The position numbers and the translations under genes are program-made. A stretch of 64,000 nt of DNA from Capsulimonadaceae bacterium (GTDB lineage Bacteria; Armatimonadota; Armatimonadia; Armatimonadales; Capsulimonadaceae): positions 4,896,001-4,960,000 of the forward strand of contig OZ244065.1 of the NCBI GenBank assembly GCA_965215505.1, read 5' to 3'. Shown here piece by piece: positions 26,299 through 53,230 of this stretch; the first letter of the stretch is position 1; every line of letters begins with the position of its first letter. Under the pieces are notes generated by a model. That model searched no databases and was not told where the DNA came from. It worked only from the letters and a program-made list of their open reading frames with translations.

Positions 26299-26314
26299 TG
26301 CAAATTCTATGCCA
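26299..26314 (-). promoter_or_regulatory. Sigma54 promoter for gmd-fcl
   Basis: TGGCATAGAATTTGCA on the minus strand. Confidence 0.75.
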
Positions 26315-26422: not shown

Positions 26423-26438
26423 TGGCATGATTCTTGAT
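26423..26438 (+). promoter_or_regulatory. Sigma54-like promoter (variant -12)
   Basis: TGGCATGATTCTTGAT. Confidence 0.55.
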
Positions 26439-28015: not shown

Positions 28016-28031
28016 TGGCATGGTTTGTGCA
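28016..28031 (+). promoter_or_regulatory. Sigma54 promoter for the wzc-wza-exosortase operon
   Basis: TGGCATGGTTTGTGCA. Confidence 0.7.
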
Positions 28032-28112: not shown

Positions 28113-30410
28113 ATGAACGAGCTTCAACCGAACAACCCCGAGATGGGCATCAAAGAATTCGTGGCCGTCCTGCGCCGGCGATTCTGGGTCATCCTGCCCA
28201 TCCTGCTGCTCTGCGTGGCGGGCGCGTATGCCGTGACCATGGGAACCCCCTGGACCAAGGGCATCCCCAAGTCCTACCGCGCCGAGTCGGAGCTGCAACT
28301 GATCCAGCGCGCTTCGACCGCCAGCAACGACTCGGTGGACGGCATGAACACGCAGACCGTTGACCCGATCGAAACCGAGCTGGCTCTGATCCAGAACCGC
28401 GAGATGGCCCGGCGGACAGCGGCGGAGCTAAAGAACAAGGCAATCGGGGCGGGCCTGACGACCGACACTTCTTCCCTGTCCTCGCTGGCTGACGCCATCC
28501 AGAGGGCCGTGAAGGTCACCAACCCGACCGACTCCAACCTTCTGATCGTCACGGCGGATGCGAACGAACCGGGGCAGGCGAGTGACCTCGCCAACGCGGT
28601 CGCCAACGCATTCGTCGAGTATAAGAGGACCCTCGCGACGCGCGACATGACTCTCGCCCAGGCTAACCTGGAGCGCCGGGCCGCCCGCGCCCACACCGCC
28701 ATGCTCGCGGCCCAGCAGAAAGAAACAAACTTCAAACTGGCACACCACCTGTCGGACGTGGATGCGGAAGACAAATCGGTGAACGAACAGCGGAACAGCT
28801 CGAACAGTCAGGTCGCCGTACTCACCGGGAGGCTCGCCTCCCTGTCCGCCACCGCCGCCCAGCTGGACACACAGCTCAAGGCGGCGAACGCCGCCGTCCA
28901 GTCGGAAGGCGGCGTCCCCGATGAGGCCCTCGCACAAAGGCTCCAGCAGGAACTGGGTCAGCTCAAAGCGCAGCGCCATGACGCCGGGCAGCAATACACC
29001 TACGACTTCCCCGGCACGCCCACCCTCCCCTCGCTCCGTAGCCTGGACGCCCAGATCGCGGAAACGCAGAGGCAGTTCGACGCGGCCAAGAAGGCCGCCA
29101 CGAACAACGCCGTACCCACCCTGGCGGCGCGGAGCGCCCTCGCCACTGAAGACGCCGCCGCCCACACGCAGGAGGTCGCCGCCCAGCAGGAACTGAACTC
29201 AGCCGTCGCCGCCCAGAACGCCTATCAGCAGCGGGTCGAGGGCATGCCCAGCCTTCAGCAGCAGTACGGCCGGTTGAGCCTGAATGCTGACCTCGCGGCT
29301 GACCTTTACAAGCACCTCCAGGCCTCCCTGGAAGCGACCCGGCTCCAGCTTGGCCTAGTCTCCGGGAACGTGACCATCACCCAGTTCGCCGAGGCGCCTC
29401 AGCTCCCTTACAAGCCCGACCTCAAGACGAACCTGGTGCTGGGGCTTGCCCTCGGCGCACTGATCTCGCTCGGCCTGGTCATGCTCCTGGAGCAGACCGA
29501 CCAGCGCGTCCGGACGCTCGACGAGGTGCGCGCCCTGGTCTCGGGGCCGATCATCGGCATGCTCCCCCGCACCTCGCGCGGCCAGATGACCGCGCTGGCC
29601 CAGGGCCGCCTGCTGCCGCAATTCGAAGAGGCTTTCAGCCTGGTGCGCGTCAACCTCTCCTACGTCATGCGCCACTCCATGATGCGCGAACAGGCCGAGC
29701 ATCAGACCATCCTGGTGACCAGCGCGGTCCCCGGCGAGGGCAAGTCCGTCACCGCCGCCGAACTCGCGCGCTCCATGGCCGAGGCAGGCAAGTCCGTCAT
29801 CCTCGTGGATGCCAACCTGCGCCGCCCGTCACAGAACGTCCTGTTCCAGACCGGCGAGTCGGGCGGCCTGACCGACGTCCTCTCGGGGCAGCTCCCCCTG
29901 GACGAGGCCATCGCCACGTCAAACGTCGAAAACCTTTCCATCCTCAACAGCGGCGTCAGCACCCAGAACCCGACCGTCTTGCTGTCGCAGCCGCGCCTGG
30001 CGTCCGTCATGGAAGCCCTGCGCTTCAAGGCGGACGTGGTCATCATAGACGCGCCCGACTGCACCTCCGTCGCCGACACGCTCCTGCTCACCGCCCACGC
30101 CGACTGTCTGCTGCAAGTGGTGAGAGCGGGCATGGTGGACATGGAGACGCTGCACAACGCCTCCATGGCCCTCCACGCCACCGGCAAGAAGGTGACCATC
30201 CTGGCGAACGGGCTGACCCGCCCGCAGCAGCGCGCCTTCCGGTCGCGCTTCGCCTACGCCGCCCTGTCCAGCCAGAGCGAGACGCCGGCCCTGCCGCAGA
30301 CCTTCGACAAGACCATGGTGATGAACCGCTCCCGCGACCTCATCTTCTCCAAATCGGCGCACAAGTCGCTCGACAACCCAGAAGGAACGCCGGAGCAGAA
30401 CGAAGCGTAA
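28113..30410 (+). CDS. Wzc-like polysaccharide co-polymerase / BY-kinase fusion
   Basis: Two TM helices around a coiled-coil periplasmic region; VTSAVPGEGKS, LVDANLRRP and VVIIDAP motifs. Confidence 0.88.
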   Translation: MNELQPNNPEMGIKEFVAVLRRRFWVILPILLLCVAGAYAVTMGTPWTKGIPKSYRAESELQLIQRASTASNDSVDGMNTQTVDPIETELALIQNREMARRTAAELKNKAIGAGLTTDTSSLSSLADAIQRAVKVTNPTDSNLLIVTADANEPGQASDLANAVANAFVEYKRTLATRDMTLAQANLERRAARAHTAMLAAQQKETNFKLAHHLSDVDAEDKSVNEQRNSSNSQVAVLTGRLASLSATAAQLDTQLKAANAAVQSEGGVPDEALAQRLQQELGQLKAQRHDAGQQYTYDFPGTPTLPSLRSLDAQIAETQRQFDAAKKAATNNAVPTLAARSALATEDAAAHTQEVAAQQELNSAVAAQNAYQQRVEGMPSLQQQYGRLSLNADLAADLYKHLQASLEATRLQLGLVSGNVTITQFAEAPQLPYKPDLKTNLVLGLALGALISLGLVMLLEQTDQRVRTLDEVRALVSGPIIGMLPRTSRGQMTALAQGRLLPQFEEAFSLVRVNLSYVMRHSMMREQAEHQTILVTSAVPGEGKSVTAAELARSMAEAGKSVILVDANLRRPSQNVLFQTGESGGLTDVLSGQLPLDEAIATSNVENLSILNSGVSTQNPTVLLSQPRLASVMEALRFKADVVIIDAPDCTSVADTLLLTAHADCLLQVVRAGMVDMETLHNASMALHATGKKVTILANGLTRPQQRAFRSRFAYAALSSQSETPALPQTFDKTMVMNRSRDLIFSKSAHKSLDNPEGTPEQNEA

Positions 30411-30498: not shown

Positions 30499-31704
30499 AT
30501 GAAACCCCAAATGATCCCCCTGGCGCTGCTGGCGGCACTGGCCGCCGCACCTGCCAGTGCGCAGATGATGCCGATCGCGCCCGTGACGCCCGCCTCCCCG
30601 GCGAGGCCTGTGACGGTCTCCCCCGATTACAAGATCGCTGAGGGGGACGTACTCGGCGTCAACGTCGTCAACTTCCCCAACCTGTCCATGCCCCAGACGA
30701 TGGTCACTCCTGGAGGCAACATCTCTGTCCCCCTGCTGGACCAAGTTCCGGTCGTTGGCATGACTCAGGACCAGGTGAAGCGCCTGCTGACGACCAAGTG
30801 GCGGAAGTACGTCCACAACCCGGCGGTCAATGTATTCCTGACGCAGAAGCACGCGCAGGTGATCAGGCTGAGCGGCTCCCTGAACCATACTGGGAGTATA
30901 GACTACACGCCTGACCTCCATGTGCTGCAAGCCCTCGCTCAGATGGGCGGCGCTTTGCCATCCGCCGATGCCACGAAGGCCGTTCTGCAACACACCGACG
31001 GGACTCAACAGGTTCTTGACCTGAGCAACCCAGAAAGCAAGGCCGGCACGGATGTGGATGTCCTGCTCCAACCGGGTGACACCCTGATCATCCCTGACCA
31101 GAAGGGCAAGGTAGGCATCGTCGGTGAAGTCAAGAATCCAGGCAACCTCTTCTACAAAGAAAACCTGACCGTGCTGGACGCCATCAACCTCAGCGGTGGC
31201 ATCAACCCGGACACCGCCGACTTGTACAATTCCACGCTGACGCACAACGGCGTGACAAAAAAGATAGACCTGTACGCGCTTCTGCACAACGGCGATCTCA
31301 CTGCCAATGCCCCGCTCGTGGCCGGGGACATCCTAACCATCCCCGAACTGCACAACCGCACCTACGTCTTCGGCGATGTGGGGCGGCCCGGTTACTACTA
31401 CTACAAGCTGGGGGATCGTATCCTTGACGCCTTGAACAGCGCTCAGGTCGCTCCCGACGCGGACACCGGCAAGATCAACCTGATACACACGAACGCCGAC
31501 AAGACGTTGTCGAAAATGGTTCGCGTGAACGCGGACGAATTCTTGCAGCACGGCAACATCATCGGGAACCCCGAAGTGCAGCCGGGCGACTCGCTGTACA
31601 TCCCGAAGAAGCACGAGCAGTTCAACGCTAATACCGTCTTGCAGACGCTCACAGGAGTCGGTGCGCTCGCGAACACCACCTATTTGCTGCGAACCGTTCA
31701 CTAA
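30499..31704 (+). CDS. Wza-like polysaccharide export protein with SLBB repeats
   Basis: YKIAEGDVL, GNISVPLL, VGEVKNPG and VFGDVGRPG motifs; signal peptide. Confidence 0.88.
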   Translation: MKPQMIPLALLAALAAAPASAQMMPIAPVTPASPARPVTVSPDYKIAEGDVLGVNVVNFPNLSMPQTMVTPGGNISVPLLDQVPVVGMTQDQVKRLLTTKWRKYVHNPAVNVFLTQKHAQVIRLSGSLNHTGSIDYTPDLHVLQALAQMGGALPSADATKAVLQHTDGTQQVLDLSNPESKAGTDVDVLLQPGDTLIIPDQKGKVGIVGEVKNPGNLFYKENLTVLDAINLSGGINPDTADLYNSTLTHNGVTKKIDLYALLHNGDLTANAPLVAGDILTIPELHNRTYVFGDVGRPGYYYYKLGDRILDALNSAQVAPDADTGKINLIHTNADKTLSKMVRVNADEFLQHGNIIGNPEVQPGDSLYIPKKHEQFNANTVLQTLTGVGALANTTYLLRTVH

Positions 31705-31710
31705 ATCCCT

Positions 31711-32604
31711 ATGATCACACAGGCAGGAACAACGCAGGGCACGCCGCCCGTCGGGGGCGGGATGACGGCATCCTCACCGGCCTGGGACCGGTGGCTGCCC
31801 CTCGTCTTCGCCGTGGGCGTGCTGGCGCTATACGCGCCGACGCTGGCGAAGGCGGCGCAGGAATGGACGATCAACGACAACTACGCGCACGGGTTCTTCA
31901 TCTTCCCGCTGTGCGCCTTCCTTCTCTGGTTGCGGCGCGATGACCTGCGCCAGGTGGAGCGCCGCCCGAACGCCTGGGGCTTCCTGCCGCTTGTCGTGGG
32001 GGTGGTCTGGCAGTCCCTGAGCTACACCCTCCAGCTCCGGTACATCGGCATCTGGACGCTGCCACTGACTCTGGTCGGCGGCGTCCTGCTGCTGTACGGG
32101 CCGGCGATGCTGCCCCTGGTCCGGTTCGCCATCCTCTTTTCTTTTCTGGCGTACCCGCTGCCGCACTCCCTCCTTAACGGCCTGACGGTCAAGATACAGT
32201 CCGCCAGCACGGACGGAGCGACCACCCTGATGACCACGCTGGGATACCCGCTGATCAAGCAGGGGAATGTCATCCAGGTCCCAGGTGCCTCGCTGGAGGT
32301 CGCCGAGGCGTGCAGCGGCTTTCACAAGCTGCTCAGTTTGACGGCGTTCACGTTGCTCTACAGCTACCTGTTCACGACCAGCCAGTGGAGACGGGCGATC
32401 CTGATCGCCGCCGTCCTGCCGCTGGCGCTGCTGGTAAACGTCCTGCGGATTTCCGGCCTGATCGCCTTCGCGGCGGCCGGCGGGCTGCCCGCGCTCCACG
32501 CGGCGCATGACGGCGCGGAATACTGCGCCATCGCCCTGGCGTTCGGGCTGCTGATATTGTTAGGAAGGATTCTCGGATGCCGAACAATGCGCTTCTCCCT
32601 CTGA
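31711..32604 (+). CDS. Exosortase (EpsH/Xrt family)
   Basis: YAHGFFI; catalytic Cys/Arg/His in VAEACSG, NVLRI and AHDG; multiple TM helices. Confidence 0.92.
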   Translation: MITQAGTTQGTPPVGGGMTASSPAWDRWLPLVFAVGVLALYAPTLAKAAQEWTINDNYAHGFFIFPLCAFLLWLRRDDLRQVERRPNAWGFLPLVVGVVWQSLSYTLQLRYIGIWTLPLTLVGGVLLLYGPAMLPLVRFAILFSFLAYPLPHSLLNGLTVKIQSASTDGATTLMTTLGYPLIKQGNVIQVPGASLEVAEACSGFHKLLSLTAFTLLYSYLFTTSQWRRAILIAAVLPLALLVNVLRISGLIAFAAAGGLPALHAAHDGAEYCAIALAFGLLILLGRILGCRTMRFSL

Positions 32605-33215
32605 TGGGCTGCGCCCTGATTCTGTCGGCCGTCGCCGCCGACTACGGCCTGGGACAGCTTGACGTGCCGAAGCCCCACCGCCTGCCCATCGAGGGCTTCC
32701 CCGCAGTGGTCGGTGACTGGAAGGCGGGGCCGGTCCAGGAAGTAGACGCGGACATCCAGAAGCGGCTGCCGACGGCGAAGATCGTGGAGCGCGTTTACAC
32801 CAACCCGTCCGGGCAGACGATGGACCTGATGCTGCTGACGGCCACCGAGGACGAGGACATGCACAGCCCCAAGGCCTGCTTCCCCTCGCAGGGCTGGACC
32901 CTCAGCAATGTGAAGGAAACCCAGGTGGACGGTCAGCCGATGACCCAGATGACCGCCGACATGGACGGGCGGGGGAAACTGGCCGTCCTGTACTGGCTGA
33001 CCGGGTACTATGCGCCCGCCCCGCCCCGGAACGCCCTGCTGCAAAAAGCGTCCGTCTGGCGGACCCACCTGATGGGAGCGCACAACAGCATGTCCCTGTT
33101 CGTGCGGATCACCGCCCCCGATACGCCGCTAAACGATCGGGCGATGACCGATTTCACGTCCGCGCTTCACGACCCGCTGAAAGCGCTGGTGCAGTCGGGC
33201 GCGAGTCCCTCATAG
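32577..33215 (+). CDS. Exosortase-associated EpsI-family protein
   Basis: FPAVVGDW, RVYTNP, HSPKACFPSQGW and VLYW motifs; overlaps the exosortase stop. Confidence 0.85.
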   Translation: MPNNALLPLMGCALILSAVAADYGLGQLDVPKPHRLPIEGFPAVVGDWKAGPVQEVDADIQKRLPTAKIVERVYTNPSGQTMDLMLLTATEDEDMHSPKACFPSQGWTLSNVKETQVDGQPMTQMTADMDGRGKLAVLYWLTGYYAPAPPRNALLQKASVWRTHLMGAHNSMSLFVRITAPDTPLNDRAMTDFTSALHDPLKALVQSGASPS

Positions 33216-33309
33216 GCACCCCGCCCGCATGCCGCCCCGTCCCGCTTTGACTGAACGCGCCGTCTCACGATCAATCTTCACAATCCATTGTCTTAAAGGT
33301 AGTACCACC

Positions 33310-34356
33310 ATGTCAATCCCGCCCACGCCGGTCCCGCCCGTCCTGCGCCCGAAGAACGAGAAAAACGTCATCGCCAGCCGGGAAACGTCCCCGCCGCTCA
33401 TGGCCTTGCAGTCGCGCTGGCCGACCCTGCTGCCCTGGGGCGCCGCCGCCCTCGGCCTGCTGATCGGCTTCCTCGGCGGCTACCTGATCATGCGCCACCG
33501 CCACGAGGGCCAGAAAGTCGTCGCCGCCGTCAACGGCGTCCAGATCACACAGGACCAACTGTTCATACGGCTGCAGGAGGCCGCAGGGCAGCAGGCCGTC
33601 CACAAAATGGTGGAGGAAGAGCTTCAACTGCAATTCGCGGCCAAGGAGGGCGTCGCCCCCACGGACGCCCAGGTGGATGCGCGGTACAAGGCCATCCAGA
33701 AGGACCCGCGCTTCCTGCCCGCCCTGCGCGCCAGCGGTATGTCCCTGGAAGACTACAAGCACAGCCTGCGCGTCCGGCTGGCCCAGGCCAACGTGGTGAC
33801 CCAGAAGGTCACGGTCACGGACGCCGAGGTGCAGGACTTCTACAAAACGCAGAGCGACCCGAACAACCCGCAGGCGCAGTTCTACAAGCCCGCCACCATG
33901 ACCTTCCGTGTGATCGCCACGGCGAGTCAGGCGACGGCGCAGCGCGCCCTTTCGGACCTCAACGTCAGCAACACCCCGTTTGAGCTGGTCGCCTCCACAT
34001 ACAGCATTGACCCGAGCAAGAGTGTTGGCGGCCTGATCGCACCTTTGCAGCGCGGGCGGTCGCCCCTCTCCCAGAACCCGGCCCTGGAGGCCAGCCTCTT
34101 CAACCTGAAGGTCGGGCAGGTGTTCGGGCCGGTGAGCTTCAACAAGGGGTGGTGGATCTTCCGGTGCGAAGACAAATCTTTGGGGCAGGCGCTCCCCTTC
34201 GACAGCATCAAGGAGGAGGCGGTCCTCGGCGCGGAGATCGTGAAGGGGACGAAGATCAACGGGCCTGCCGTTGAAGCGAGATTCCAGGACTTCGAGCGCA
34301 CCTCCACCCTCCAGCCGTTCTGGACACAGTACGAACACGCGGTGACTGGGCGTTAG
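33310..34356 (+). CDS. SurA/PrsA-type peptidyl-prolyl isomerase (EpsD-like)
   Basis: TM anchor; VAAVNGVQIT, VTDAEVQDFY and FELVASTYSIDP-SKSVGG motifs. Confidence 0.82.
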   Translation: MSIPPTPVPPVLRPKNEKNVIASRETSPPLMALQSRWPTLLPWGAAALGLLIGFLGGYLIMRHRHEGQKVVAAVNGVQITQDQLFIRLQEAAGQQAVHKMVEEELQLQFAAKEGVAPTDAQVDARYKAIQKDPRFLPALRASGMSLEDYKHSLRVRLAQANVVTQKVTVTDAEVQDFYKTQSDPNNPQAQFYKPATMTFRVIATASQATAQRALSDLNVSNTPFELVASTYSIDPSKSVGGLIAPLQRGRSPLSQNPALEASLFNLKVGQVFGPVSFNKGWWIFRCEDKSLGQALPFDSIKEEAVLGAEIVKGTKINGPAVEARFQDFERTSTLQPFWTQYEHAVTGR

Positions 34357-34430: not shown

Positions 34431-34634
34431 GTCTTTTTCGGCGAATGGTTGTCCGGCTGACAGCAATATCTTCCCGCCGGTGTTATAATGACCCAAGACG
34501 GCCTCGGATTTGCGCCCTGTACGGATGTTCATCCGGAATAGTTGCAGGGACAAATGGTTGTGGCTAATGTTTTGGCAGTTCCTGTCGGCAAATAACTTAG
34601 CTTTTTTGCTGATAATGCCGCAAAAACGCAGAGT

Positions 34635-34650
34635 TGGCACGGAATTTGCA
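34635..34650 (+). promoter_or_regulatory. Sigma54 promoter of PEP-CTERM gene 1
   Basis: TGGCACGGAATTTGCA, a consensus match. Confidence 0.85.
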
Positions 34651-34660
34651 GTAAGAAGAC

Positions 34661-34815
34661 TGGTACAAGTCTCAGCTAAGTTTTACAGGGAAGGCAGCTC
34701 AAGGACGAGGGGATCGAGTGGAGACATTTCAGTACCGACTTGCGGACTGTAGTGTACGGCCTGTACCCAGCCTCAGCGCGGTAAGCCCGCCACCCGAAAG
34801 GAGACTGTGCCACCA
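34661..34815 (+). ncRNA. Candidate structured 5' leader RNA, copy 1 (unknown class)
   Basis: Begins at the predicted +1; closing stem TGGTACAAGTCTC/GAGACTGTGCCA; helices conserved with copy 2 despite sequence divergence. Confidence 0.6.
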
Positions 34816-34914
34816 AGTCAATCACTCATTCGCGGCGGCGGTGACGACTCGCGGGACCAGACCGCACTCTAACAGCAATCCTGATCGCATCAAGAAGACA
34901 CAGAGAAAACAAAC

Positions 34915-35406
34915 ATGAACAAGATCACTTCCACTCTCACCGGCCTCGCCCTCGTGGCGGCCGCGAGCGTTGCCCCCGCCTTCGCGCAGGCCGGCAACCT
35001 CTTCACCCCCGTGGGCGGCAGCCCGTTCACCGTCGTCGGCGTCGGGACGGCCAACTTCACCGCCACCGGCACGGCGATGTTCAACGCGGCTGGCAGCACC
35101 TCGGTCACCTCAGTGCCGTTCACCATCACCGGTTCGGACACGAACGGTGCGCTTTACACGATTAAGACGTACACGCTGAACGGCGTATTGGATACGACCG
35201 CGCCCGGTGCGTTCTTCATCGTGGCGACCCTGCCCTCGGGCGCCACCTCGGTCGCCAGCGTCGGCTCGTTGCCGAGCGGCAACACCTTCAACCTGGTCAA
35301 CGCCCCGGTCCCCGAGGCCAGCACGGTCGTCTCCTTCGGCGCCCTACTCGCCCTCGGCGGCATGGCCGTCGTCCTGCGCCGCAAGGGCGTCAAGAACGCC
35401 GCCTAG
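34915..35406 (+). CDS. PEP-CTERM (exosortase substrate) protein 1
   Basis: Signal peptide ending AFA; Thr/Ser/Gly-rich body; VPEASTVVSFGALLALGGMAVVLRRK tail. Confidence 0.9.
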   Translation: MNKITSTLTGLALVAAASVAPAFAQAGNLFTPVGGSPFTVVGVGTANFTATGTAMFNAAGSTSVTSVPFTITGSDTNGALYTIKTYTLNGVLDTTAPGAFFIVATLPSGATSVASVGSLPSGNTFNLVNAPVPEASTVVSFGALLALGGMAVVLRRKGVKNAA

Positions 35407-35452
35407 GGGCCGCCGCCCGCGCGCCTCGGTGCCGGGCTCGGCTACCCATTCC

Positions 35453-35481
35453 AGCCGCCCCCCTTTCGGGGGCGGCTTTTT
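35453..35481 (+). terminator. Intrinsic terminator
   Basis: AGCCGCCCCC/GGGGGCGGCT stem followed by a T run. Confidence 0.85.
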
Positions 35482-35635
35482 ATTCAAGCAGGAACCGGTT
35501 CAGGGCGGCGATTTTCGCGGCGATTTTCAAGGTTAGCCGTTGCCCCTTTGGGTACAACAGTAAGGAAAACCTGGCCACCCGGAAACACTCCTTGAGACTC
35601 CCTTGTTAGCGTCTATTTACCAAAAACACGCAGGT

Positions 35636-35651
35636 TGGCATGAAATTTGCA
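35636..35651 (+). promoter_or_regulatory. Sigma54 promoter of PEP-CTERM gene 2
   Basis: TGGCATGAAATTTGCA. Confidence 0.85.
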
Positions 35652-35661
35652 GTGTGATCAA

Positions 35662-35825
35662 TGGTAGTCGTCTCGGCTGAACCGTCTCACGGGACGGTAA
35701 GGCCGAACGGAGACGCTCCAGTGTCTGACAAAGACATCGCGGCAACACCACGCGACTTTCCGTGTGGGGCCTGTGCCCGGACTCAGTACGGCGTATTCGC
35801 CATCCGAAAGGAGACTGTGCCACCA
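35662..35825 (+). ncRNA. Candidate structured 5' leader RNA, copy 2 (unknown class)
   Basis: Begins at the predicted +1; closing stem TGGTA...GTCTC/GAGAC...TGCCA; last 58 nt align without gaps to copy 1 (46/58). Confidence 0.6.
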
Positions 35826-35962
35826 CCAAAAACACAACACTCGGCCGCAGCAATGACTCCAAGGTACGGCCGCAATTGGGCGTCCTTCTCAGTCGCGGTT
35901 CTTGCAGCATCTACTGCACAAGAGCATCTCGATCGCATCGAAAAGACACAGAGAAAACAAGC

Positions 35963-36460
35963 ATGAACAAGATCACTTCCACTCTCACCGGCCTCGCCCT
36001 CGTGGCGGCCGCGAGCGTTGCCCCCGCCTTCGCCCAGGGTAACCTCTTCACCCCGGTCGGCGGCGCGCCGTTCAGCATCACGACCTCCGGCTCGTCCTTC
36101 GTGGCCAGCGGCATCGCGAACTACAACCCGCTCGGCACCACCACGTCGTCCACGGCGACGTTCATCCTGTCGGGCACGGGCACCGGCCCGCTCTTCACGG
36201 TCACCTCGTTCGGGTTCACCCCTGCGGGTGGTTCGTTCGTCCCGGAGCCGTCCGGCAGCCTCTTCACCGTGGTTGGCCTGCCCACCGGAGCCACGTCTGT
36301 CTCCAGCGTCGGCTCGCTGCCTGACGGCACGACCTTCAACTTCGTCACCGCCCCGCCGGCGGTCCCCGAGGCCAGCACGGTCGTCTCCTTCGGTGCCCTG
36401 CTCGCCCTGGGCGGCATGGCCATCGTCCTGCGCCGCAAGGGCGTCAAGAACGCCGCCTAG
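35963..36460 (+). CDS. PEP-CTERM (exosortase substrate) protein 2
   Basis: Start MNKITSTL, paralog of 34915; VPEASTVVSFGALLALGGMAIVLRRK tail. Confidence 0.9.
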   Translation: MNKITSTLTGLALVAAASVAPAFAQGNLFTPVGGAPFSITTSGSSFVASGIANYNPLGTTTSSTATFILSGTGTGPLFTVTSFGFTPAGGSFVPEPSGSLFTVVGLPTGATSVSSVGSLPDGTTFNFVTAPPAVPEASTVVSFGALLALGGMAIVLRRKGVKNAA

Positions 36461-36516
36461 GGACCGCCCGCGCGCTCCGGCGCCCGGATGGCATCCCTAC
36501 ACGGGTTCCCGCCCCC

Positions 36517-36546
36517 GCCGCCCCCCTTACGGGGGGCGGCTTTTTT
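36517..36546 (+). terminator. Intrinsic terminator
   Basis: GCCGCCCCCC-TTAC-GGGGGGCGGC followed by TTTTTT. Confidence 0.88.
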
Positions 36547-36575
36547 ATTTGAGAGCGTGGCGGTTTCCGGGCGTT

Positions 36576-36591
36576 TGGCATGATTCTTGCA
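36576..36591 (+). promoter_or_regulatory. Sigma54 promoter for the glycosyltransferase operon
   Basis: TGGCATGATTCTTGCA. Confidence 0.8.
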
Positions 36592-36753
36592 AGAATGGAG
36601 AGTGGTGCTGCCGCAGGCTCCGCCGTGTTTTGCCGAGTATGGAGCTGGAAGTGGAGCTGGAATGCGTAGACCGTGCCGCCCCTTTTCGGGTAAACTGTCG
36701 GAAGTTACTTCGCTCCCTATCCAGCCACCGCTCCGCCGTGTCTTCGTCTTGCC

Positions 36754-53214: not shown

Positions 53215-53230
53215 TGCAAAATCCATGCCA
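53215..53230 (-). promoter_or_regulatory. Sigma54 promoter of the acyltransferase
   Basis: TGGCATGGATTTTGCA on the minus strand. Confidence 0.75.

Follow-up and report, generated by a model that had tools for sequence, protein, structure and literature searches.

A lineage-restricted, modular 5' leader predicted upstream of two sigma54-dependent PEP-CTERM genes in a Capsulimonadaceae bacterium

Two tandem PEP-CTERM units and their leaders

A 64,000-nucleotide (nt) stretch of a Capsulimonadaceae bacterium genome (assembly GCA_965215505.1, contig OZ244065.1, positions 4,896,001 to 4,960,000; hereafter the window, whose numbering is used unless stated otherwise) contains two tandem genes, A and B, for PEP-CTERM-like surface proteins. 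As judged from the sequence, each is a single-gene, sigma54-transcribed unit, and the 5' untranslated leaders, counted from the predicted transcript starts, are 254 and 301 nt long. Segments 34661-34816 and 35662-35825 form the first 155-165 nt of these predicted leaders and, by comparison with relatives, are members of a lineage-restricted, modular and non-coding family. Both segments end in the same 22-mer, CCGAAAGGAGACTGTGCCACCA (34794-34815 and 35804-35825), which is expected 0 times by chance and, with up to three mismatches allowed, is found at only these two places in the 6.18-Mb genome. An earlier note on this DNA had described this identical 22-mer, and had placed TGGTA at 34661 and 35662, 12 nt past the C of the -12 GC (34649 and 35650); we confirmed the former and found the coordinates of the latter to be correct. 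The features of the two units are as follows.

34635-34650, + strand: sigma54 -24/-12 promoter of gene A, TGGCACGGAATTTGCA, 0 mismatches to the motif
34661-34673, + strand: 5' strand of leader A, UGGUACAAGUCUC; nt 1 is the predicted transcript start
34674-34719, + strand: P2 arm of leader A, variable, with an AGCU...AGCU stem
34720-34737, + strand: internal box of leader A, GGAGACAUUUCAGUACCG, candidate alternative partner of the 5' strand (-12.6 kcal/mol, 13 bp, p=0.004)
34752-34781, + strand: P4 hairpin of leader A, GGC..loop..GCC plus an outer stem; the helix richest in two-sided changes
34794-34815, + strand: 22-nt box of leader A; Shine-Dalgarno (SD)-like part GAAAGGAGA, then CU, then GUG-CCA
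34807-34872, + strand: short frame opened by the box GUG of leader A, 21 codons; length and peptide not conserved
34878-34917, + strand: translation initiation region of gene A, ..AAGACACAGAGAAAACAAACAUG; common to all leader types of the genus; repeat D1, 95% A/B identity
34915-35406, + strand: gene A, a 163-amino-acid secreted protein with a PEP-CTERM-like tail, VPEAS...RRK
35453-35477, + strand: intrinsic terminator of gene A
35636-35651, + strand: sigma54 -24/-12 promoter of gene B, 0 mismatches to the motif
35662-35825, + strand: module 1 of leader B, with 5' strand 35662-35674, P2 35673-35706, internal box 35709-35720, extra hairpins, P4 at about 35762-35790 and the 22-nt box at 35804-35825
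35838-35927, + strand: module 2 of leader B, CUCGGCC.., GGCCGCAAUUGGGCGUCC.. and a hairpin CUUGCAGC..GCACAAG; conserved in eight leaders from relatives and not in leader A
35963-36460, + strand: gene B, a 165-amino-acid paralogue, 66% identical to A
36517-36540, + strand: intrinsic terminator of gene B

The two promoters share the sequence TGGCAYGNNNNTTGCA (34635-34650 and 35636-35651). Across the window, the -24/-12 motif with at most one mismatch was matched eight times versus 0.92 expected, and the genome encodes rpoN (302 bits; cut-off 277). The C-termini of proteins A and B align with the whole of the PEP-CTERM model TIGR02595 at 13.8 and 13.9 bits, just below its cut-off of 16. Together, units A and B form a tandem duplication (about 1.0 kb) whose identity is mosaic, at 95% for the start region with the signal peptide and likewise for the C-terminus, 76% for the promoter and 5' strand, and 78% for the last 64 nt of module 1, which end in the identical 22-mer. 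Just 5' of the -24 box lies an A-rich tract (34618-34634, CAAAAACGC; 35619-35635, CAAAAACACGC), also seen in relatives' promoters, which may be a bending or UP-like element.

Contigs of related strains contain two rearranged forms, each single and of low depth. In run X6, position 35650 is joined to 35879, skipping module 1 of leader B; in run X9, 34665 is joined to 35802, so that leader A breaks off just after its start and continues in the 22-mer belonging to leader B. The junctions could stem from genuine deletion or recombination, or from chimeric assembly over the repeat. None of the strain differences listed for X7 and X9 falls in 34661-34673 or 34794-34815, a result that does not amount to invariance since 114 more differences lie beyond those listed.

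Upstream of the two units lies an exosortase/exopolysaccharide (EPS) cluster, the genes of which were named by NCBIfam models.

Exosortase/EPS cluster upstream of units A and B: GDP-mannose dehydratase, fucose synthase and glycosyltransferases
28113-30410: tyrosine autokinase/chain-length determinant
30499-31704: polysaccharide export protein
31711-32604: exosortase (TIGR02602, 148.9 bits)
32577-33215: EpsI
33229-34356: PpiC-type isomerase

Additional sigma54-like -24/-12 motifs are present at 36576-36591, 28016-28031, 26423-26438, 26299-26314 (- strand) and 53215-53230 (- strand), preceding a glycosyltransferase gene (36754), the tyrosine-kinase/chain-length gene (28113) and other EPS genes. 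From these motifs the entire exosortase/EPS locus looks sigma54-driven. The best genome match to the PrsR model TIGR02915 scored 366.5 bits, below the cut-off of 502.6.

Conservation and distribution of the leader

Conservation is distributed unevenly along the leader. Among eight complete leader-plus-gene units, mean pairwise identity was 0.86 in the 22-nt box and 0.74 in both leader nt 1-14 (34661-34674 in A) and the start region, versus 0.46 in the module 1 interior and 0.52 in the middle of the coding sequence; the signal-peptide and PEP-CTERM codons stood at 0.88 and 0.86, respectively. The 26 columns that are invariant in 11 copies cluster in the box (..CCGA.AGGAG.CUGUGCCA.C). This identity pattern and the clustering of the invariant columns suggest selection, apparently purifying, on the 22-mer box and on the 5' strand, with an interior that is free to vary in sequence.

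We found no common open frame in the leaders, as all three plus-strand frames are stopped within the first 150 nt in six of 11 and the rest differ in register. A candidate leader peptide, MP[ST][YH]QT[AV]N.., recurs in six leaders and was rejected: 2-nt indels interrupt its frame in copy B and in the leader of one relative (L005), and by our own count the variable sites of the region fall about 4:4:6 over the three codon positions, with no third-position bias. Given the indels and the lack of bias, the recurrence is best explained by conservation of the nucleotides.

To trace the leader in relatives, a covariance model was built from six copies and used to scan 71 genomes of the order, and metagenome contigs were covered by a protein-anchored scan; in all, 13 copies were recovered and aligned. 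Leaders of this kind, termed type I, occur in four of the 71 genomes, all of a single genus: the window genome (two copies), G011, G022 and G012 (two copies). The seven further copies lie on metagenome contigs, six of them distinct, with L198 duplicating L196. Both the sigma54 motif and the orthologous gene were seen in the fetched DNA for 11 of the 13 copies; the other two (L199 and the second copy of L201) are cut by contig ends, and the gene of L199 was seen.

The protein family itself (MNKxTxTLAGLA..PAFAQ ... VPEASTV.SFGALLALGG...RRK) was matched in 24 of the 71 genomes and at full length in 17. Twenty-three of the matches are in the genus of the window genome, its own included, and the remaining one, weak and partial (E 1e-4), belongs to a different genus of the same family; the sister family, with 32 genomes searched, gave 0 matches. 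Upstream of the orthologues we collected 27 distinct leaders spanning sigma54 promoter to AUG. All 27 keep the start region GACACAGGRAAAACAxGCAUGAAC, and further upstream they fall into several unrelated types. A scan of the genome collection for a 16-nt box pattern returned at least 120 stretches, mostly ordinary ribosome-binding sites, and a search of 80 listed loci with the covariance model found the element only in L139, on the contig of G011.

Several observations concern the other leaders and module 2. Type II comprises L035, L036, L037, L039, L041 and L049, and type III comprises L013, L042, L045 and L047; others are L048, L051 and L200. At the very 5' end of the L200 leader is a perfect palindrome of about 24 bp (-22.1 kcal/mol), and type III leaders keep a GAGGCUGUGCC box that is paired with a downstream GCACAGC. 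A second leader family in the window genome, starting YUACYGGCGUCCCGC...CCCCGCC, is found at three other PEP-CTERM genes preceded by sigma54 motifs (G000:C1 near 1801793 on the - strand, and 3674648 and 6151177 on the + strand). Module 2 carries the motifs CUCGRCC.. and GGCCGCAAUnnGGCGUCCUYCUCAGUCGCGG and a CUUG..CAAG hairpin with compensatory changes; in our reading of the full-length RNAalifold structure, its segment GGYAUGGCC can form 9 bp with GGCUGUGCC of the 22-mer.

The leader matched no established RNA family. In agreement with the earlier note, which recognised no riboswitch class, cmscan against Rfam 15 (4227 models) gave 0 matches at gathering thresholds in the 64-kb window. For 34500-36700, lowering the bar to E <=10 produced only weak matches on the two terminators and, inside the leaders, matches to the narK model (15.6 bits against a gathering score of 43.2) and the mascRNA-menRNA model (16.6 bits against 42.5), both below half of the gathering score; neither c-di-GMP-I, c-di-GMP-II nor any other riboswitch family was listed. 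Our literature search found nothing on RNA motifs or untranslated regions of PEP-CTERM genes, or on PEP-CTERM in Armatimonadota. On these comparisons the element is real but narrow, and non-coding; the leader would be new, lineage-specific and narrowly distributed, while belonging to the familiar class of conserved, structured mRNA leaders.

Predicted pairing of the 5' end, and the Shine-Dalgarno-like box

The earlier note had the UGGUA and GUCUC of the 5' end pair with the GAGAC and UGCCA of the 22-mer to close the module, and this complementarity was borne out. Compared with 1000 shuffled 5' 14-mers for each copy, the duplex of copy A (-17.9 kcal/mol) has p=0.001 and that of copy B (-12.9 kcal/mol) a marginal p=0.050; for the 5' 14-mer with the box in nine a-type leaders, p ranged from 0.001 to 0.079. 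The minimum free energy (MFE) folds of both modules include the closing stem, although with fold z-scores of only -0.35 for A and -2.78 for B the modules are not exceptionally stable. Of the five UGGYA/UGCCA pairs, three never change and one alternates between U-G and C-G, while the last is an A x C mismatch in two of 12 sequences; in our own reading, all three b-type copies start UAGCA opposite an unchanged UGCCA and are uncompensated. In GUCUC/GAGRC, four of five pairs vary on one side only and the fifth departs only via unpaired cells.

The 5' strand has a second candidate partner. The earlier note had suggested that GUCUC could instead pair with an internal GAGAC, and we found this alternative to be real and more extensive than described there. 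The internal box, GAGACRCUCC, sits 45-60 nt downstream and is about as good a partner for the 5' strand as the 22-mer; pairing with it would fold roughly the first 60 nt into a 5'-terminal stem-loop, with the variable P2 arm as its cap. For the 5' 14-mer with the internal box, p was 0.004-0.058 in six of 10 leaders. The internal duplex versus the distal one comes to -15.3/-12.9 kcal/mol in B, -17.3/-16.7 in G011 and -12.6/-17.9 in A. When duplexes with the internal box are taken free of register, nt 6 forms G-C in six copies and A-U in two a-type copies, and nt 8 forms G-C, U-A or C-G; both positions are unpaired in the closing-stem model. In these duplexes the internal-box pairing has a few compensatory changes. 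When nine copies were aligned in fixed register with MAFFT, 82% of the internal helix was paired, versus 28-50% when slid.

RNAalifold applied to the module retained the closing stem and a long P4 hairpin, which corresponds to the fourth helix of the earlier note and has two-sided changes in five of its 12 pairs. On the 13-copy alignment the whole RNAalifold structure was 86% paired, versus 30-48% with the 3' partners slid, and contained 18 cells with two-sided changes compared with 8.5 +/- 2.2 in shuffles. That difference overstates the support, given the relatedness of the sequences and an alignment that had been fitted to the model. The earlier note had tied its structural claim to covariation in a larger alignment; among 9-13 related sequences such covariation is partly absent, with several two-sided changes found only in P4. 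Among its four helices, the first and the fourth are kept in relatives, while the second (GGAG-ACN-YUYC) is not, nor is the third arm, which is missing in five of 13 copies. At the place of P2, relatives keep a stem by our reading (CGGC...GYCG), mostly with G-C to G-U changes.

Other pairings were considered and set aside. A kissing interaction between the first and the last hairpin loop had been proposed, and the loops are complementary in both copies (-8.1 and -10.3 kcal/mol), yet the z-scores relative to shuffled loops are only -0.79 and -0.89. In nine relatives, own pairs averaged -5.0 kcal/mol and cross pairs -4.7, with a mean z of +0.18 and no covariation; the complementarity is strong in the two window-genome copies only, and the interaction was rejected. 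The change 34763 G>A in X9 would break one of the proposed kissing pairs, with no compensating change among those listed. The full-length RNAalifold instead drew the 5' end as paired with the start-codon region, but this duplex was no better than shuffled in 10 leaders (p=0.11-0.63) and was likewise rejected, as was an extension of the 5' end/box pairing to other leader types (p=0.19-0.69 for types III and V). In folding predictions the 5' end tends to be paired: the probability that nt 1-4 are unpaired lies below the shuffle median in 21 of the 27 leaders, with all types represented, and RNAalifold on the six type II leaders gave a 5'-terminal hairpin starting at nt 1-2. Taken as models, several mutually exclusive pairings are compatible with the 9-13 related sequences, and there is no significant covariation.

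The 22-nt box resembles a ribosome-binding site. The 16S rRNA of the organism ends in ...GGAUCACCUCCUUUCU, with a tail segment CACCUCCUUUCU; because of this 3' end, GAAAGGAGG, the form of the box in most relatives, is predicted to be a perfect 9-nt SD sequence, and GAAAGGAGA, the form in the window genome, matches the 16S tail over 8 nt. Nine copies from relatives could be aligned through the box, with GAAAGGAGG in five, GAGAGGAGG in two, and AAAAGGAGG and GAAAGGGGG in one each. The SD-like box is located 105-150 nt upstream of the AUG. Two nt after its core stands GUG-CCA, in all 11 type I leaders and in three of four type III leaders, and the frames opened by this GUG run for 4-49 codons and are not conserved. 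Genome-wide, AAAGGAG[AG] occurs 197 times, of which 79 precede an open reading frame of at least 100 amino acids; the spacer is 5-9 nt in 52 and 2 nt in five. Since CCGAAAGG and the UG are invariant though unpaired in the closing stem, we argue for a role of the box beyond pairing with the 5' end.

No terminator-like site was found on the + strand within 34661-34914 or 35662-35962, which makes transcription attenuation unlikely, and the earlier note's suggestion of a free or processed small RNA found no support, with neither leader containing such a site. The tRNA-like ACCA described in the earlier note follows the box in two of 12 copies, both in the window genome, and ARAGORN reported 0 genes. 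The broader proposal of a new cis-regulatory RNA holds in that the element is non-coding, lies at the predicted 5' end of each sigma54 transcript, is outside Rfam 15 and occurs in other species; covariation of the closing stem and of the kissing loops, and the ACCA, did not hold.

Proposed function and alternatives

We infer that the leader acts in cis on its mRNA. Our preferred reading, to which we give a probability of roughly 0.4 and which is accordingly tentative, is that it serves as a 5' untranslated region (5' UTR) stabiliser or translation-control leader of surface proteins made in abundance, combining a paired 5' end with a ribosome site like the stabilising SD (STAB-SD) of Bacillus, possibly with switching between pairings. 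The 5' end of the transcript would be kept paired, either by the internal box, in the stem-loop of about 60 nt, or through closure of the module on the 22-mer. The SD box, initiating poorly or not at all, would recruit or park a 30S or 70S ribosome in STAB-SD fashion. With its 5' end paired and a ribosome parked, the message would be protected against the 5'-end-dependent decay carried out by RNase J and RNase E. Which of its two mutually exclusive partners the 5' strand takes could determine how far the SD-like box is exposed. The genome encodes RNase J (TIGR00649, 606.9 bits, cut-off 400), RNase E/G (350 bits) and RNase Y (648 bits).

A number of results weigh against this reading. MFE z-scores of 12 modules range from -0.16 to -2.73, with eight of 12 weaker than -1, and the closing stem shows 0 two-sided changes in 12 sequences. 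In the fixed-register alignment the covariation of the internal helix is no better than in shuffles, with 82% pairing reached by 201 of 500 and one two-sided pair. Pairing of the 5' end is individually weak (a value of <=0.04 of 25 shuffles is attained by only five of the 27 leaders, which are related to one another), and its predicted partner shifts among sequences when folded in 200-nt or full-length context. The covariance model finds no module in 20 other genomes of the genus, and orthologues in the 13 other genus genomes from which the gene was fetched have other leader types. In a truncated variant in G011, the 5' stem-loop (first 60 nt) is joined straight to module 2 without the 22-mer. 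Lastly, the SD core is predicted to be paired, the probability that all five nt are unpaired being <=0.002 in 11 of 11 leaders, and a freely accessible STAB-SD is therefore not fitted. Across the MFE folds the partner of the core varies: in two it is the 5' strand, elsewhere the neighbouring UUUCC or another segment.

Other explanations account for parts of the same evidence. As the two partners of the 5' strand are mutually exclusive, of like strength and conserved, with GAGRC shared by the internal and distal boxes, the leader might be a signal-responsive, riboswitch-like switch in which a ligand or physical cue picks the internal box or the 22-mer and thereby alters SD exposure, translation or decay. 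Riboswitches for cyclic di-GMP (c-di-GMP) do precede PEP-CTERM genes elsewhere, in the case described in PMC12530212. However, no riboswitch family was matched up to E 10, and the interior, where a ligand pocket would be expected, is the least conserved part (46% identity, few invariant columns). The leader is also without a terminator or a start codon at working distance to act as expression platform, and arm P3 is dispensable, being absent in five of 13 copies. We regard such a switch as unlikely. Slightly lower still we place a leader bound by a protein, for example a CsrA paralogue, at its purine boxes (AAGGAGG, and ACAGGGA at the start site), with repression or protection of the mRNA as the outcome; the CsrA consensus and the multi-site pgaA leader are the background to this idea. 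The box is more conserved than pairing alone would require (CCGAAAGG and UG), and the genome has four CsrA matches, one of them (G000:C1:616508) just behind a sigma54-like motif (region 616398-616678) and another (6150864-6151022) divergent from a sigma54-driven PEP-CTERM gene (region to 6151177). The GGA that such binding would call for is, however, not kept at the internal box of relatives (GAAGAC, CAAGAC, AAAGAC); it is present in most copies of the 22-nt box but lost in G012 (GGGGG), and it is missing from the start region of both window-genome copies (CAGAGA).

The conservation might also have no role at the RNA level and reflect recent duplication or gene conversion, or a function in DNA, which we consider improbable. 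The tandem duplication with 95% identical flanks, the narrow family (four of 71 genomes) and the lack of statistical covariation would fit ancestry, but the box is 86% identical across species while the adjacent interior and the middle of the coding sequence drop to 46-52%, so shared ancestry alone is insufficient. With respect to DNA, the reverse complement of the box includes TGGCAC, which resembles a -24 element and is invariant on the minus strand, and the 5' strand resembles TGGCA. The minus strand nevertheless reads TT where the -12 GC is expected, and the box is thus not taken to be a sigma54 promoter; it also lies 130-150 nt downstream of the start, outside the territory of enhancer-binding proteins. 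Least probable is the release of module 1 as a stable small RNA of about 150 nt ending after the box. Its ends can pair and the sequence after the box is less conserved, yet there is no terminator-like site in the leaders, ACCA is found in two of 12 copies, ARAGORN found nothing, and the element always stands in cis before the same gene family.

The stabiliser or translation-control leader that we favour has its closest documented parallel in the cry3A mRNA of Bacillus thuringiensis, where, as described in PMC4113751 (section 3.2), an SD-like 5'-UTR sequence that does not initiate translation binds 30S and blocks RNase J1. Both have a 16S-complementary, SD-like site more than 100 nt before the start codon in a long 5' UTR; cry3A is, by the same account (PMC4113751), the mRNA of a very abundant protein, and RNase J is also encoded by the window organism. 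In contrast to the STAB-SD of Bacillota, the core here is predicted to be paired, is followed 2 nt on by GUG-CCA and lies about 130-150 nt from the predicted start within a larger conserved module, and the organism is an armatimonadote.

Two mRNAs of abundant envelope proteins, Escherichia coli ompA and the Lactobacillus S-layer gene slpA, are stabilised by 5'-terminal stem-loops in their leaders. As there, a long 5' UTR precedes the gene of what would be an abundant exported protein and the very 5' end is predicted to be paired. Unlike them, the leaders described here have two candidate pairing partners, and no sequence relationship connects them to ompA or slpA.

Among PEP-CTERM genes, Haft et al. 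2006 (PMC1569441) described large unexplained upstream regions and a -24/-12 sigma54 motif in proteobacterial examples; there the motif is reported for Proteobacteria only, with a mean motif-to-start distance of 71 nt. The units resemble that class in being single genes with a big non-coding upstream region, a sigma54 motif and an exosortase/EPS neighbourhood, and differ from it in the predicted leaders of 254-301 nt with conserved transcribed modules and in a PrsR match below cut-off. In Methylophaga nitratireducenticrescens, c-di-GMP riboswitches precede tandem PEP-CTERM genes (PMC12530212, Table 4). Going by that table, the arrangement is alike in that tandem PEP-CTERM genes each have their own structured leader, and unlike in that the present leaders have no Rfam c-di-GMP match at E <=10 and an interior that is not aptamer-like in its conservation.

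A more specific version of the proposal, which we think doubtful, is a new kind of riboregulator for exosortase-sorted surface proteins in which the 5' end toggles between the two boxes, hiding or exposing a decoy ribosome-binding site, and a parked ribosome decides between survival of the mRNA and its decay by RNase J or RNase E. The decoy would be the perfect SD with GUG-CCA at a non-productive 2-nt spacing. If so, translational capacity or some signal would be coupled to surface-protein output.

PEP-CTERM/exosortase proteins are widespread, and this leader offers a concrete, testable example of what may be post-transcriptional control in the little-studied Armatimonadota, with a conserved element, defined boundaries, two candidate pairings and a putative decoy SD. 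Should the stabiliser or switch reading be false, the element would still be a clean marker of a lineage-specific regulatory module. Should it be true, STAB-SD-like control would reach beyond Bacillota, and the leader might be used to boost expression.

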